Positions 5,050 through 61,871 of a DNA stretch of 64,000 nucleotides are shown in pieces (positions within the stretch are counted from its first letter, which is position 1; each line of letters begins with the position of its first letter). This DNA comes from Octopus vulgaris (lineage: Eukaryota), in contig OX597839.1 of assembly GCA_951406725.2 (NCBI GenBank), positions 36,084,001-36,148,000 on the forward strand, given 5' to 3'. The position numbers and the translations under genes are program-made. The notes beneath the pieces are model-generated. The model saw nothing but the letters and a program-made list of their open reading frames with translations. It had not been told where the DNA came from and ran no database searches.

Positions 5050-6865
5050 CAATAAGGAGCAAATAGTTCAGAAATTATTTGCAAAGATACTATTAACTTT
5101 ATTATCGTCTATAGTAACAATTAAATTATTAATAACACAATCAATAATATAGGCGAATGCAGCCCCACCACCACCACCAAAAGCATTAAATAGCTGAAGG
5201 ATTAAAATTTATATGAATCAAAGGACATACTGAGTGACATAGTCAGTATGTCCTTATATAGATATCATTAGCAAAGATATCAATGACAGGGTAATAACCG
5301 TCCTTAAGTCTAAAATTAGATTAGCTCCCTGGTCTCATACCCAGGAGATGGTTGAATGGTTCTAGATTCTAGAAATTAATAAAACTAGTAAATTCTTGCA
5401 ACTTGATATAGAGAGCTACTATACCACTATCAACCCAAGCATTCTCAAAGCCATGATTTTTAGCATGAAAAATTCCAATTTGTCCCGACACGAAATAGAT
5501 ATTATTCTTGTCATGCGAGCCACTCTAGTATATTTTGATGGTACACTATGGAGTAGATTAGATAGGGAAAATGCATTTGATATAGCAATGGGCTCACACG
5601 ATTCTGCTCAAGCCAGTAACCTAATCAGACAGAATATATATCCTTTCATTAATCCAGTCTTCTTTCCTGAAGTAACAGGGGGTCTATATAAAGATGATGT
5701 CTTATTTTCCTAGACAGAAGTAGTAAAGTACAGTTAGAAAGGCATACGAAAAATTTCTTTCAACTTTTCAAAAATTTAGGACAAAACATTTCTATAGGTA
5801 AGGATTATCGTAGAGTGAATTTTCTTGATGCTACCTTCTATCTTGTTACTGGATTATTTGAACCATTTCATAAACCAAATAATCATATTAAGTACATTAA
5901 TGTAGCATCCAACCATCCACCCTCAATTATACAGGGACTAATTAAGCATATTTCTACTAGAATTTCTACATTATCTGCTACCAGTAAAATTTTCGGATCT
6001 CATGCATCTTATTATAATGATGCTCTATCTAAGGATGGGTACCATCATAGAATTCAATATTTACAAGATGCAGGGCTTAAGCAACACTGATAATTCTTAC
6101 AACTGCGATGCACATCATATATCACCACAACGCTACCATTTTGAGAAATCATTCAGATAAAGAATACAGGCCAGAAAGAATTGGTCATGATCTACCAAAG
6201 AAAACTCATAGACACATGTGACATAGTAATTCATCTGCTTGTTCCAATCCTGTAGAATACACGAGATCAAATAGACCTAACAACAGATATAGGACTCAGG
6301 ATGTCCTCTGGTTCAACCCAATTTTCGGTTTGAATGTTTCAACCAGGATCGCTGGAAAATATTTTGCTGCTTTGGACAAGTGTTTTCCTAAACCCAATCA
6401 GTATCATGCTATTTTTAATTGGCACATCATGAAGGTATCCTATGCTAACTCTGCTAAGTTGGAGCAGCTTATGCATCGCATAAACAACAGCAACATGCGG
6501 CAAAGGTTCAGTAACCCACCTACTGGATCTAGCAAGCATTTACATCTAAATGCCAACCAAGGAGATGTAAACCACATTGATATTCATCAACTTCGACCAA
6601 TTTATAGTAGTAGCAATACTCATGGTACAGCTAGCATGATAACAATGCCGGTAAATGGAATCAGGATTGCCTATATTCAAATAAAAATGATAAATGCTCA
6701 TGCAGAGATAAATCAAAATGTCCTTTGATGAATCTGTGTATGAGTACAAATTTTGTATATAAATGTACTGTGCTCACAAGGGGAGGGTCAACATAAGGCC
6801 CTATGGTGACATTGGGCGGACGGCTGATTCATTTAAGAATTGTTATACAGAATGTTCATTTCCAT
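5050..6865 (+). mobile_element. Decayed Penelope-like retroelement (RT + Zn-linker + GIY-YIG), probably Naiad clade; pseudogenised
   Basis: Collinear PLE motifs across stops and frameshifts: IISKDINDRV..WSHTQEMVEWF (from 5261), FLQLDIESYYTTI, FDIAMGSHDSAQ, GLYKDD (RT core), VNFLD..KPNN..YINVASNHPPSII (5815-6090), WFNPIFGLNVSTRIAGKYF..FPK..IFN..MKVSY (6310-6450), KCSCRDKSKCPLMNLC..FVYKCTV (from 6692), then DIGRTADSFK (degenerate YIG). The 5' boundary is approximate. Confidence 0.9.
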
Positions 6866-7204
6866 CATTTATCTATTTATATAAACTCTACAGATTCTTT
6901 GGAATTCCTAATGTATATCCTGTAGCAAGAGAATTTCCAGTGTATGATGACATCAGGAAGCCAATACCTGTGGATGGGCTTTACCTAGCATGCTACAGGG
7001 TTTTTTCACTCAAATCTCATGTAACTAATACACACACACACACACTCACAGGCAGACACACATACAGAGATACATAAATACATGTATTCTAAAACAGAAA
7101 AGAAATGAATATCAAAAACTTGAATTCAGACTATTTTCAATCAATGGCTGTTGCACCTTACACACCAAATAAAATTACCTATGATCAGCCTCCCTACTTC
7201 ATCA

Positions 7205-30706: not shown

Positions 30707-30744
30707 TCTTTTACATTTCGAGCCTACGCTCTTCGACAGAAAGA
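30707..30744 (-). ncRNA. H1 hammerhead-like motif (element ~30610-30810)
   Basis: Minus strand tcttt-CTGTCGA-A-gagc(gtag)gctc-GAAA-tg-TA-aaaga. The flanking element closely matches 2860-3025. Confidence 0.65.
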
Positions 30745-32555: not shown

Positions 32556-32755
32556 GTGCCGGTATAGTATATGATCTCCATACATGTTTCTGGGTATAGC
32601 TTGTGATCTGCATTTGTTCAAATGGTATAGTTTATGATCTACACTGGGTTTTTTTAAAAATTTACGTTTAGAATTCATCGTCATTGTAAACACTATCATC
32701 AGCATCATCATTATCGCCATCATCATTTCTTCTTCTTTGGTTTCTACTCTGTTGT

Positions 32756-32798
<43 letters not shown>

Positions 32799-33037
32799 CT
32801 TCTTCTTCTTCTTCTTCTTCTTCTTCTTCTTCTTCTTCTTCTTCTTTTTCTCCTCCTCCTCCTCCTTCTTCTTCCTCTTCTTCTGCCATGCTCCTTCCTG
32901 GCTCTTTCCCTCCCCTCCACTTCCTTCCAATTCTCTTCTTCGCCAAACTCGACTTCTGGTTGGTTTGGTATATAAACCAAAAAAAACTTTTATGATTTAA
33001 ACACTTTTAGTTCTGAGCCCATTGAAAGAAGTCGTGA

Positions 33038-33414: not shown

Positions 33415-34376
33415 TATAATAATACTAATACTACTGCTGCTGCTACTACTACTACTACTACTATTTGCACAAGTAGCTATAGCTATTGGTGGTGATGGTG
33501 GTGGTGGTAGTAGTAGTTATGATTGAGGTAGTAGACTGTTTTAAGTTCGCTCGTTCTTAGATGGTGAAAAAAGAGGAAATGAAATTTAATAAACTTCAAA
33601 CTGAAAAAAAAAATTTCAAGTAATAAAATGTCAACAAAGACGTAATTTTGCTGGAATTGGATTCATCTTTCGCGAACATTTGAGCAAGATGTCGTGGGGT
33701 GGTTAGTACCGTTGGCCATTGACGATGGCAGCCATCTTTATTTACTGTGTATATGTGTGTGTGTACCTAATTTCCAACACATGATACGCTGTTTTTGAGA
33801 TTAAAAACAAAGCTAGGCTTTAACAGAAGTGAACATGGCGAGGATGAGGATGAGGAGGAGAACGAAGAGGAAGAGGAGGAGGAAGAAGGGGAGGGGAAGA
33901 AAGAAGAAAAGTAGTTGTAGTGGTAGTGGTGGTAGTAGTAGTAGTAAGAAAGAGGAGAAGAAAAAAGGCCAAGATGATGATAGTGAAGAGAAGGAGGAGG
34001 AAAAGGCGAAGAAGAGAATGGGAAGGAAGGGGAGGGGAGGAAAAGAGGAGGGAAAGAGCCAGGAAGGAGCATGGCAGAAGAAGAGGAAGGAGAAGAAGAA
34101 GGAGGAGAAGAAGAAGAAGAAGAAGAAGAAGAAGAAGAAGAAGAAGAAGAAAAAGAAGAAGAAGAAGGAGGAGGAGGAGGAGAAGAAGAAGAAAAAGAAG
34201 AACAAGAACAACAACAACGACAACAGAGTAGAAACCAAAGAAGAAGAAATGACTATGGCGATAATGATGATGATGATGCTGATGATGATGATGATGATGC
34301 TGATGATGATGATGATGATGCTGATGATGGTGTTTACAATGACGATGACGGCAATGATTTAAGATAATGAATAGAA

Positions 34377-34515
34377 AAACTAATGGAAGGATTTATTGAA
34401 TTCCTAAAACTGCAAAATGTGGTCGTCTTTGAGAGAAACTTGCCCAAGGCGAATCAAATTGTAATGGAAGAAAGATGTAGTGAATTGAATAATAATAAGA
34501 AGAATAAGAATAATG

Positions 34516-42494: not shown

Positions 42495-42553
<59 letters not shown>

Positions 42554-42612
42554 TATTTCTTTTTGTTTTCGTTCTTTTTCTTATCTCTTCACTGCCTTTT
42601 CTGATGCTTTTC

Positions 42613-42650
42613 TTTTTCTGAGAGAGGACTAGTGTCCGAAACGTCAAAGA
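42613..42650 (+). ncRNA. Divergent H1-related hammerhead-like motif with covarying stem II and GUC site
   Basis: ttttt-CTGAGAGA-ggac(tagt)gtcc-GAAA-cg-TC-aaaga, followed by cttt..gtgttaaactaatac, similar to the H1 tail. Confidence 0.6.
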
Positions 42651-43022
42651 CTTTTAATCTTTTTAAGTGTTAAACTAATACGACATTTCTTAAAACTTGT
42701 CTCTCCTGCGTTGCCCTCATTTATGCTTATTGTCAAATACACACACACACTCACATACACACTTGCACAGACACTTATATAAATATGTATATGTAAACTC
42801 ATTATTTATATTATAATTCATGATTTATATTATTTTATTTTTTCTCCAGTGCCAGTTCTGCTGCTGAAATAAGAAGTCGGCAAATTGAAGGATTGCAAGT
42901 TCAATACCACTTTAAACCAATCACTGAACTCTATATTGTTTCAGTTAAATTTATCCTGGAAAGAATAGGTGTCAATATTCTTTTAGAGCCCTTCCTCCCA
43001 AAGAACCCATTGTATATGTATA

Positions 43023-49689: not shown

Positions 49690-50286
49690 GGCGGCGAGCT
49701 GGCAGAACCGTTAGCCCGCCGGGCGAAATGCTTATCGGTATTTCGTCTGCCGCTACGTTCTGAGTTCAAATTCCGCCGAGGTCGACTTTGCCTTTCATCC
49801 TTTCGGGGTCGATTAAATAAGTACCAGTTACGTACTGGGGTCGATATAATCGACTTAATCTGTTTGTCTGTCATTGTTTGTCCCCTCTGTGTTTAGCCCC
49901 TTGTGGATAGTAAAGAAATAGGTATTTCGTCTGCCGCTACGTTCTGAGTTCAAATTCCGCCGAGGTCGACTTTGCCTTTCATCCTTTCGGGGTCGATTAA
50001 ATAAGTACCAGTTACGTACTGGGGTCGATATAATCGACTTAATCTGTTTGTCTGTCATTGTTTGTCCCCTCTGTGTTTAGCCCCTTGTGGATAATAAAGA
50101 AATAGGTATTTCGTCTGCCGCTACGTTCTGAGTTCAAATTCCGCCGAGGTCGACTTTGCCTTTCATCCTTTCGGGGTCGATTAAATAAGTACCAGTTACG
50201 TACTGGGGTCGATATAATCGACTTAATCTGTTTGTCTGTCATTGTTTGTCCCCTCTGTGTTTAGCCCCTTGTGGGCAATAAAGAAA
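49690..50286 (+). mobile_element. SINE family B, head plus three near-identical 184-bp tandem units
   Basis: ggtatttcgtctgccgctac recurs at 49737, 49921 and 50105. Confidence 0.93.
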
Positions 50287-50580: not shown

Positions 50581-50833
50581 GGTACTATTTAAGAAGAGTG
50601 GTCCCGGTGCGCGCACTCGCGCTAGCTAGTCGTGAATAGTCGATCCTTACTTTGTGTTTTTGTGTTTTATTTACTTTGTTTAACAAAAATTATCTACTTC
50701 GTGTAAAAAAATTATTTTGTGTTTTATTTACTTTGCTAGGTAGTCGTTGTAGGATCGACTAGTCACGACTAGCTAGTGCGGATGTGCGAGTATGCGAGTG
50801 CGCGCACCGGGACCACTCGTCTTAAGTAGTGCC
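50581..50833. mobile_element. MITE with GG..CC termini and 9-bp TSD (Merlin- or Mutator-type)
   Basis: TIR gg(t/c)acta(t/c)ttaaga(a/c)gagtggtcccggtgcgcgcactcgc, extending imperfectly to ~70 bp. TSD gtgtttgtg at 50572-50580 / 50834-50842. Confidence 0.85.
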
Positions 50834-59076: not shown

Positions 59077-59477
59077 CACATGCGCGCTCATGAGGGTGTG
59101 TGTTCATGCGTTTGTTTATGTTACGTGAATTGATGTGCAGTAACTTAGCCATTCGGCAAATAGTCCTTTACGAAGTAAGTTCTAACCTCTGGTGCTCCAG
59201 CATGGCCGCAATCTAACTGCTGAGTTCAATAGAAGTCTAAGAGAAAAGAATACAGCAAATATTGTATACGTGCATACCTACACACACCCCCACACATGCA
59301 AGCACCCCCACACACAAAAACACACATACACACACTCACACACACATGGAAAGACCCCCCCACCCACAAACACACACACACACACACACGTATATGGTTC
59401 AAAGTTATACAAAAAGATAAGACAGGTGAAAGACCAGTAAAGATGTATTAGTTTGACGCTTCGGGAAAATGGATGAA

Positions 59478-59516
59478 GATTTTGACGTTTCCAGTCTACG
59501 CTCTTTTAGAAAACGG
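59478..59516 (-). ncRNA. Decayed H1 hammerhead-like motif (element ~59395-59575)
   Basis: Minus strand gtttt-ctaaaa-gagc(gtag)actg-GAAA-cg-TC-aaaat, with H1 tail cccgaagcgtcaaactaataca. Confidence 0.4.
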
Positions 59517-59623
59517 AATGGGGAGAGAAAACAGAAAAACAAAGAGACGTGCCTGGATTAACGATTGCACGTGTTGAATGTGTGTGTATGTGTGTATTCA
59601 AGCATATACATACACACACACAC

Positions 59624-59672
<49 letters not shown>

Positions 59673-59754
59673 CATATATAGAAAGAGAGAGAGAGAGTGG
59701 TACCGGATCAATTGAAACTGATTATTAAAAATGAGTTAAATACTTACTTTGTCT

Positions 59755-59789
<35 letters not shown>

Positions 59790-59829
59790 GTACACTCACA
59801 TTAATAAAGAAACATGCACACATGTTCGT

Positions 59830-60048
59830 TTAACAAACCAGCATCGGTTGTCATGCGATGTTGGGGGGGGGGACAAACACAGACACATAGACACACACAC
59901 ATACGACGGGCTTCTTTCAGTTTCCGTCTACCAAATCCACTCACAAGACTTTGGTCGGTCCGAGGCTATAGTAGAAGACACTTATCCAAGGTGCCACGCA
60001 GTGGGAATGAATCCACAACCATGTGGCTGGTAAGCAAGCTACTTACCA
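59830..60048 (-). mobile_element. SINE family A, 5' portion
   Basis: Matches the family head and body. Confidence 0.85.
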
Positions 60049-60090
60049 CGAGGACAGGTTATTAGTTTGACGCTTCGGAAAATGAAAAAG

Positions 60091-60128
60091 TATTTTACGT
60101 TTCGAGCCTACGCTCTTCCACGGAAAGG
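60091..60128 (-). ncRNA. H1 hammerhead-like motif (element ~60055-60180)
   Basis: Minus strand ccttt-CCGTGGA-A-gagc(gtag)gctc-GAAA-cg-TA-aaata. Confidence 0.55.
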
Positions 60129-60345
60129 AATAAGAGAAAATAAACAGAGAAAACGAAAAAAACTTGTAGATTTCGCGAAGTATATATATGTATATATATA
60201 TATCTCATTTTTGTATCTGGTTTGCAAGATTTTTTATGTGAATTCGCGTGTTGAAGCATATTTTATTGTGCCTGGGTAGAGTCATTCTGTTTTAATGCCT
60301 TATTAATTAACACACACACCAGTTCGATTTCCACTTATTTTTTTT

Positions 60346-60458
60346 CCTAAAATTTTCGTTCTTTCTTGCAATCTCTCCAATAGTCGTTGACCCGGTTCGA
60401 TTTCCACTTATTTATTTTTTCTAGAATTTTCGTTGCTTCTTGCAACCTCTTCAATAGA
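60346..60458 (-). ncRNA. Tandem pair of minimal hammerhead-like motifs (family H2), 74-bp period
   Basis: 60420-60458 minus strand reads tcta-TTGAAGA-g-gttgc(aagaa)gcaac-GAAA-at-TC-taga. 60346-60384 is a decayed sister copy. Confidence 0.6.
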
Positions 60459-60553
60459 CGTTGACACTGTGGCAATCGAACCGCCGAGTGTGTTAATTAA
60501 TAAGGCATTAAAACAGAATGCCTCTCGCTAGACACAATAAAATTATATATATA

Positions 60554-60709
<156 letters not shown>

Positions 60710-60800
60710 TATACGGAGAATTAACACACAGAAAAAGACGAAGACGAGTGGTGTAGACAACAAATAGATGTATTAGTATAACGCCCGGGAAGTGAAAAAG

Positions 60801-60838
60801 TCTTCAACGTTTCGAGCCTACGCTCTTCCACAGAGAGG
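60801..60838 (-). ncRNA. H1 hammerhead-like motif (element ~60715-60880)
   Basis: Minus strand cctct-CTGTGGA-A-gagc(gtag)gctc-GAAA-cg-TT-gaaga. Confidence 0.55.
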
Positions 60839-60885
60839 AACACAGAAAGAAACAAGGAGAGAAAATGGAGAATGTGTAGTGTGTG

Positions 60886-60924
<39 letters not shown>

Positions 60925-61871
60925 CTATATATACTAACAATATAGGATGAAGTCCCTTTCTCTACAGAAAAGGATTCCATCAGAAAGCGTGGCAGTATAT
61001 TAAAAAAAAACCTTTACGGTCGAAGTATAAATGTTTATATATATATATACATGGCGGGCTTGTGTATAGGTGTGGGACTGAACCCGAAACTACTAAACGG
61101 GAACAGTTGCAAAGCGAACCGCAGTCGTGAGTGTGTGTGTGCGTGCGTAAAACATTTCGCCTGTGTTTCATTTCATGCGAATGTTTACGAACAATATGTT
61201 TTGATTCAGCTTTATGTTTATAGCTAACATTCATTCACTTTTTCTCTCTTTCGTCTTCTGAGCCACTTTAAGACTTGTACACATCCATATGCATTATTGT
61301 ATACGGTTACAGTATGGCATTACACGTCACCATACACGCATACCTACTTAAGTGTATTTCTGTGTTAGAATCGAGGCATTATCGTTGATAGTATAGAAAT
61401 AGTATGGTTTAGTATTGTATGAATAGAAATAATAAAAGCAGCAATAGAAGCTAGTAAATAGAAATAAGGTGGGGAGGGCGTTAAGTTCAATTTCTAACAG
61501 CCGTCGTTTCTTCCACCTCCGCCATTGCATTTCTAGTAATAACGACCCATACCTCACTCATCGTCTCCTGCCTTGGAGAGAAGCTCAAGGGAGAGAGAAG
61601 GTACAGAGACGGCGGTTAAACTATAATATAATCAGGGAGCTGAAAGTAGAGGAATGCGGAGGAGAAGGAGAAAGAGGAGGAGGAGCATAGAGAGTCAGAA
61701 AGTAGGACATTCTGTCAGTTCCCGCTTTCTTTTTCATCTTTCAATCTGTTGGTAATTTTGATGTTGCGAGCTTTTTCTTCTTTCAATCTGCACATTTTTA
61801 TTAAAACCACAGGTTGATGTGACGAGAATATTAATATACATTATTATATTATTATAATACGCTGTATTTTA

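Follow-up and report, generated by a model that had tools for sequence, protein, structure and literature searches.

In this study, we analysed a 64,000-nt stretch of Octopus vulgaris DNA (hereafter the window) and identified at 60260-60543 what is most likely a decayed pseudo-LTR (pLTR) insertion of the Penelope-like element (PLE) type, an ordinary kind of relic in animal genomes. One of its two tandem units carries a near-intact minimal type I hammerhead motif (60458-60420, minus strand) that is well beyond chance, whereas the hammerhead of the other unit is decayed; together they have probably lost ribozyme activity. We think it quite probable that the whole structure was laid down by PLE-type reverse transcription and represents an old, dead insertion of pLTR sequence only.

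The window is AT-rich, contains many microsatellites and short dispersed repeats and has the look of non-coding DNA from an animal. The short repeat found most often in it resembles an octopus SINE. A Pfam scan of 16 of the 161 listed long frames as possible host genes gave no match, and scans for bacterial promoters and terminators, which are irrelevant to this sequence type, gave nothing above shuffled sequences. Inverted pairs lying within 2 kb of each other are not rare, with 18 in the window. One of them, at 50581-50647 and 50751-50833 (75% identity over 83 columns, about 100 nt apart), encloses a short AT-rich partial tandem, has no hammerhead match inside and may be a small DNA element. 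At 32638-33000 and 33767-34392, about 1 kb apart, two long blocks rich in trinucleotides resemble each other and are also inverted. Three head-to-tail copies of a 184-nt repeat at 49737-50286 share 99% identity (TRF); they either were amplified in tandem very recently or are an artefact of the assembly.

The element is framed by two inverted arms, 60260-60334 and 60469-60543, identical at 65 of 75 positions (E 5e-21; blastn and local alignment). The inverted copies described in the original prediction (60258-60333 and 60469-60545) are thus real, with their ends corrected by 1-2 nt. Two tandem units, a downstream one at 60319-60391 (73 nt) and an upstream one at 60392-60465 (74 nt), both read on the minus strand, are identical in 65 of 74 columns (E 2e-20, blastn) and differ by 8 substitutions and 1 gap; TRF reports a period of 74 and 2.0 copies. 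The prediction of two 74-bp units between the arms was right as to the units but not as to their placing, as the first of them overlaps the left arm by 16 nt. This 16-mer, the inner end of the left arm and at the same time part of the downstream unit, is present three times, twice directly and once inverted. Read on the minus strand, the parts follow one another as the final 75 nt in inverted copy, a junction of 3 nt (60466-60468), the two units and a 59-nt end. The left arm is the 3' end of the element, with AATAAA at 60267-60262, and the right arm is a 5'-truncated copy of that end on the plus strand, with AATAAA at 60536-60541, so that the two signals face outwards and the inverted arrangement is head-to-head. 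The arms form a long and very stable hairpin (-111 kcal/mol, z -13). Their central 33 nt are identical and 9 of the 10 differences lie in two clusters, a clustering that could be due to chance, gene conversion or different templates.

The insertion has (TA)n to its left and right. Its right end adjoins a (TA)n run at 60544-60713 in which TRF and blastn reveal, near 60613-60628, a short slipped copy of the element's end. On the left, a (TA)n run at 60181-60203, by flank comparison a probable part of the insertion target, lies beyond a 56-nt stretch (60204-60259, minus strand). This stretch, a single copy unique in the window and found at one end only, is either a candidate PLE "tail" or old flank. 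If it is counted in, both ends of the element fall in (TA)n, and the 75-nt inverted repeats are not terminal. No target duplication longer than an ATAT 4-mer was found within 6 nt of either arm end, and even that one needs uneven ends in an AT-rich flank; a TA duplication placed at the arm ends does not fit on the right side. The absence of a target duplication could reflect decay. Just beyond the right (TA)n, 60719-60730, in the 3' end of a copy of a second hammerhead-like family, matches 60305-60316 at the start of the 59-nt end exactly over 12 nt (blastn); the match is probably due to chance and is absent from the remaining copies of that family.

Minimal hammerheads occur by the thousands in animal genomes (PMC4209133). 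The motif at 60458-60420 consists, on the minus strand, of a 4-bp stem I, the box UUGAAGA, an extra G, a 5-bp stem II with a 5-nt loop, GAAA-AU-UC and the closing strand of stem I. U3 is at 60454, G8 at 60449, the extra G at 60447 and C17 at 60424; stem II begins with G10.1-C11.1, and stem III is the palindrome AAUU. This is the reading given in the original prediction for the intact unit, including AAUU and U3, and both the sequence and the descriptor scan agree with it as written. When the published RNAmotif descriptor for PLE minimal hammerheads (PMC4209133) was re-implemented with at most one mismatch allowed in the first box, it matched three sites in the window: this motif, which departs from it only in the U at position 3, and two copies of the second hammerhead-like family, which served as a rough positive control. 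With no mismatch allowed, no site in the window was matched. Our own descriptor, allowing at most one core mismatch, matched the motif at 60458-60420 as its one site on both strands of the 64 kb. Under strict scoring the motif fits neither the C3-G8 nor the U3-A8 descriptor: where CUGANGA or its U3-A8 variant would be expected, the better unit has UUGAAGA and the other unit UUGGAGA as first box. The second box, GAAANNUH with a palindromic NN, is present in both units (GAAA-AU-UC and GAAA-AU-UU). The stems and loop of the better unit lie within the published ranges (3-7 bp for stems I and II, 3-10 nt for the loop), and this unit alone combines an extra nucleotide between 9 and 10.1 with G10.1-C11.1. 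A register in which the box starts three bases sooner, like that of the second family, was rejected, since by eye stems I and II fail to pair in it.

The statistical case for the motif comes from 3464 simulated windows generated by Markov models of orders 1 and 4, trained without the finding. These gave 0.064 and 0.076 descriptor matches (at most one mismatch) per window, or 239 matches altogether, and 69 of them had the palindrome. Requiring both the palindrome and G10.1-C11.1 left 3 matches, and adding the observed stem lengths left none; as the stem-length filter was set post hoc from the observed motif, 3 in 3464 windows is the fairer figure. A smaller earlier simulation run was in agreement. 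The extra nucleotide between 9 and 10.1, G10.1-C11.1 and the palindrome at 15.2-16.2 mark genuine motifs and are not required by the descriptor (PMC4209133); they are fair filters because the authors of that paper saw them emerge unasked. Rfam gave no match at gathering score anywhere in the window, and the 32 weak matches that it gave for 59300-61000 (E up to 10) include no hammerhead family. Folding of a 113-nt fragment gave a pairing probability of 0.99 for stem II and 0.43-0.51 for the monomer stem I, and a single unit folds no better than shuffled sequences (z -0.8).

The layout and the motif together make a PLE origin likely. PLE insertions contain partial tandems, an adjacent inverted 5'-truncated copy and a 30-40 bp tail at one end, and their bias towards microsatellite targets hides target duplications (Craig et al. 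2021, PMC8557442); the usual inverted arrangement is head-to-head (Arkhipova et al. 2013, PMC3846280). The element described here has both a partial tandem of pLTR-like units and an adjoining head-to-head inverted truncated copy, and it follows the published pattern part for part, except that it has no reading frame and that its candidate tail is 56 nt long. The predicted PLE pLTR-like layout with a minimal type I hammerhead is therefore supported both by the published layout and by the motif statistics. Jukes-Cantor distances are similar for the arms (0.147) and the units (0.118), which fits one event followed by neutral decay; two of the arm differences are of the CpG-to-TpG type. In addition, the second hammerhead-like repeat, present in several copies and lying in (TA)n, suggests that such elements are at home in this genome.

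The mechanism can be proposed from published PLE work. A PLE protein supplied in trans would nick AT-rich DNA and reverse-transcribe an RNA carrying the pLTR. The partial tandem would result from a template jump and the head-to-head inverted copy from priming on the opposite strand. Frangieh et al. (2024, PMC11167929) link the tail to reverse transcription that starts internally once AT-rich DNA has been cleaved. In the source element, minimal hammerheads may have cut the transcript, either paired via the AAUU palindrome or with the help of protein. After insertion, the copies would have drifted apart neutrally, by 12-15%. At about 0.06-0.07 per copy, the insertion would be roughly 18-20 million years old if the calibration of PMC13282606 applies.

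Several observations do not fit this interpretation well. The candidate tail is longer than the 30-40 bp described, and the 5' flank of the motif is not U-rich, unlike the published consensus (PMC4209133). Other points against it are the deviating first box, the combination of rare features in both units, the concentration of unit differences within the motif, the lack of an Rfam hammerhead match and the failure of the searches to find a second or reverse-transcriptase-linked copy. Moreover, both units start at the same base. Independent 5' truncations are therefore not a ready explanation, and the common start points either to a local duplication or to the fixed RNA 5' end of a very small element. 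As to the latter, there is some chance, though a minor one, that a very small non-autonomous element, moved by a PLE enzyme, is transcribed as the 74-nt unit and nothing more, with the common start as its RNA 5' end and with a consensus of U3-G8 and an all-AU stem III.

It is rather unlikely, in our estimate, that the PLE end and its inverted copy are real while the tandem is a later local duplication of 74 nt, which would make it uninformative on dimers and template jumps. Both units have the same start base and the same three rare features (U3-G8, the extra G and AAUU), other places in the window also show short local tandem duplications, and the divergence of the units is slightly below that of the arms. 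However, these divergences rest on 8 and 10 differences and are indistinguishable, no microhomology was seen by eye at the unit borders, and partial tandems are the normal PLE product (PMC8557442).

An improbable alternative is a MITE or foldback DNA element that has terminal repeats of 75 bp and encloses a tandem, its hammerhead being captured or coincidental. The long near-terminal inverted repeats with their stable hairpin and the absence of coding capacity in protein searches are in keeping with such an element. Its target duplication, on the other hand, would be at most the ATAT 4-mer; TA at the arm ends fails on the right. The recurrence of the arm's inner 16 nt in direct orientation inside the element shows that the arm is a piece of the internal sequence, and the motif is very unlikely to have arisen by chance in the simulations.

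The hammerhead of the downstream unit, at 60346-60384 on the minus strand, has U3, G8, the extra G and AAUU in common with the better unit, and its U17 is at 60350. The unit alignment shows that it has undergone the changes A6G and G10.1A and that its stem II is broken; both descriptors miss it. The original prediction had called this unit decayed, and these losses bear it out. Seven of the eight substitutions between the units fall inside the 39-nt motif, which makes up 53% of the unit (binomial P about 0.05, hand count), and none of these seven differences is compensatory, in a comparison of two copies only. There is thus no sign of constraint or selection on the pair.

We consider it very improbable that the two units, in their present state, work as a dimeric ribozyme. 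Such a dimer would make one cut only, after U 60350: the decayed unit would supply the 3' strand, and the better unit the box and stem II that act on it. It can be drawn without a pseudoknot, with a 4-bp outer stem I that includes one G-U pair and a 4-bp AAUU stem III. In a nearest-neighbour model of the 113-nt fragment, however, the dimer fold was predicted at +4.2 kcal/mol against a minimum of -13.1 kcal/mol, with stem III pair probabilities of at most 0.001, and the whole-element fold gave 0.001 for the outer stem I and about 0.45 for stem II; these models leave the catalytic core unscored and are uncalibrated on an active minimal dimer, so the values make activity less likely rather than exclude it. 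The models also ignore the protein help that a PLE hammerhead needs (PMC11167929). On the other hand, cleavage is weak even for canonical minimal dimers (PMC4209133), and 8 of the 9 Xenopus dimers tested gave no cleavage (bioRxiv 10.64898/2026.07.22.740005). The suggestion that the pair is preserved in a dimer-competent arrangement thus runs against the changes A6G and G10.1A, the broken stem II, the lack of compensatory change and the strongly disfavoured dimer fold. Least credible of all is a relic of coding DNA rearranged by replication errors with a chance hammerhead: two open frames (46 and 49 codons) run across the feature, but no protein relative was found (weak evidence, given the short queries) and the motif statistics oppose chance.

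The core of the motif is unusual. By our own count of the 56 single examples published in PMC4209133, U3 occurs in three, two of them with A8 and one, from Saccoglossus, with G8. The A-U palindrome at 15.2-16.2 occurs once, in Crassostrea, and G as the extra base, for which the published consensus has H, once, in Nasonia. The published U3-G8 row may itself represent one mutated copy. In the octopus element the three rare features co-occur in both units. The original argument that the 3-8 pair tolerates covariation does not hold as written, as both units have U3 opposite G8, a wobble, whereas the published swap is U3-A8 (PMC4209133). No usable data on the activity of U3-G8 were found in the accessible text of the hammerhead literature, including PMC7151607, PMC3088659, PMC2837043 and PMC8967140. 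A genome-wide consensus that keeps U3-G8 would bear on the open question of the role of PLE hammerheads, because the hammerhead, which is protein-assisted, is dispensable for insertion in vitro (PMC11167929). If the 74-nt unit were indeed a very small element with this consensus, it would be a natural wobble-core minimal hammerhead kept family-wide, either protein-dependent or serving as a protein-binding signal and not as a cutter. Together with the neighbouring U6 family, it would mean that the common PLE-type repeats of this genome carry altered hammerhead cores, and whether cleavage by PLE hammerheads is needed at all could then be tested directly.

The neighbouring U6 family is a second hammerhead-like repeat of about 185 nt, with six clear copies in the window, most of them bordered by TA-rich runs. 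By profile and alignment, its stem II motif lies at 2905 and 27339 on the plus strand and at 30731, 59503, 60115 and 60825 on the minus strand; a weaker copy is at 42529-42684 on the plus strand. In the better copies the first box reads CUGUnGA (U6), stem II has kept well, and GAAA-CG-U and a stem I of 5 bp are present. In the diverged copy, at 42618, position 6 is A and one base of the box seems to be missing. With its many copies and its U6 core, this family may be of greater interest than the element at 60260-60543. The idea that the element belongs to a second, unrelated family is supported at sequence level as far as relatedness goes, since the profile of the U6 family does not match it at E up to 10; the existence of a family goes beyond the one insertion found.

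Neither blastn nor profiles of the units and arms revealed a further copy of the element in the window, the best outside match having an E of 0.48. Two patterns searched in GTDB genomes gave 0 matches each, which carries little weight for an animal non-coding repeat in a bacterial collection. Word-indexed and HMMER searches with short queries, covering two of the six frames that cross the feature, gave no protein relatives, and no reverse transcriptase or GIY-YIG reading frame lies in or beside the element. At 5366-7074 on the plus strand, 53 kb from the element, four broken frames resemble a decayed PLE reverse transcriptase and endonuclease region, a label that we assume from the motifs. For these frames, Pfam gave no relevant match, the homologue search gave none at E of 0.001 or below among 69 candidates and PDB gave nothing; NCBIfam gave a weak retron reverse transcriptase match (E 0.026). 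This remnant shares no sequence with the element, and the descriptor scans found no hammerhead beside it. In the listed titles and abstract openings of the octopus hammerhead ribozyme literature, no description of this repeat family was found. The supplement of the O. vulgaris repeat annotation (PMC13282606), in its accessible part, has no mention of hammerheads and no matching string; its repeat library could include the family.

A single decayed copy matters little, and the layout has already been described for PLEs. The value of the element is as a seed for a repeat family for which no description was found. The known systems differ in how closely they resemble it. Non-LTR retrozymes (Cervera and de la Pena 2020, PMC7229834) likewise consist of short, non-coding tandem units, each bearing a type I hammerhead, and retrozyme units of 51-972 bp derived from PLE pLTRs are described in a preprint (Li et al., bioRxiv 10.64898/2026.07.22.740005). 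However, the retrozymes of PMC7229834 are 170-400 nt with canonical hammerheads, unlike the element here, which in addition has an inverted arm. By the usage of the preprint, the element would not be an "active" retrozyme, as only one of its two units is near-complete and the other fails both descriptors. Poseidon of Anolis (Frangieh et al. 2024, PMC11167929) provides a mechanism for a one-sided tail, through two internal reverse-transcription start sites, and for AT-rich targets. Its reading frame starts in hammerhead stem II, whereas here neither unit has a start codon at that place and no long frame comes after it.

The hammerhead itself is closest to the minimal type I hammerheads in the pLTRs of metazoan PLEs (Cervera and de la Pena 2014, PMC4209133). 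These also have a 4-bp stem I, an extra nucleotide before stem II, G10.1-C11.1, a stem III without a loop, a palindromic 15.2-16.2 and an AU-rich 3' side; the octopus motif differs from their consensus in U3-G8, the extra G and AAUU (each 1 in 56) and on its 5' side. The insertion as a whole is closest to those of endonuclease-bearing PLEs (PMC8557442, PMC3846280). Unlike them, it has no reading frame between its repeats and a longer candidate tail, and its units are only 74 nt long, against 181-218 bp for the pLTRs of A. vaga. Like them, it shows a partial tandem, a head-to-head inverted truncated copy, a one-sided extension and a (TA)n context with no clear target duplication.
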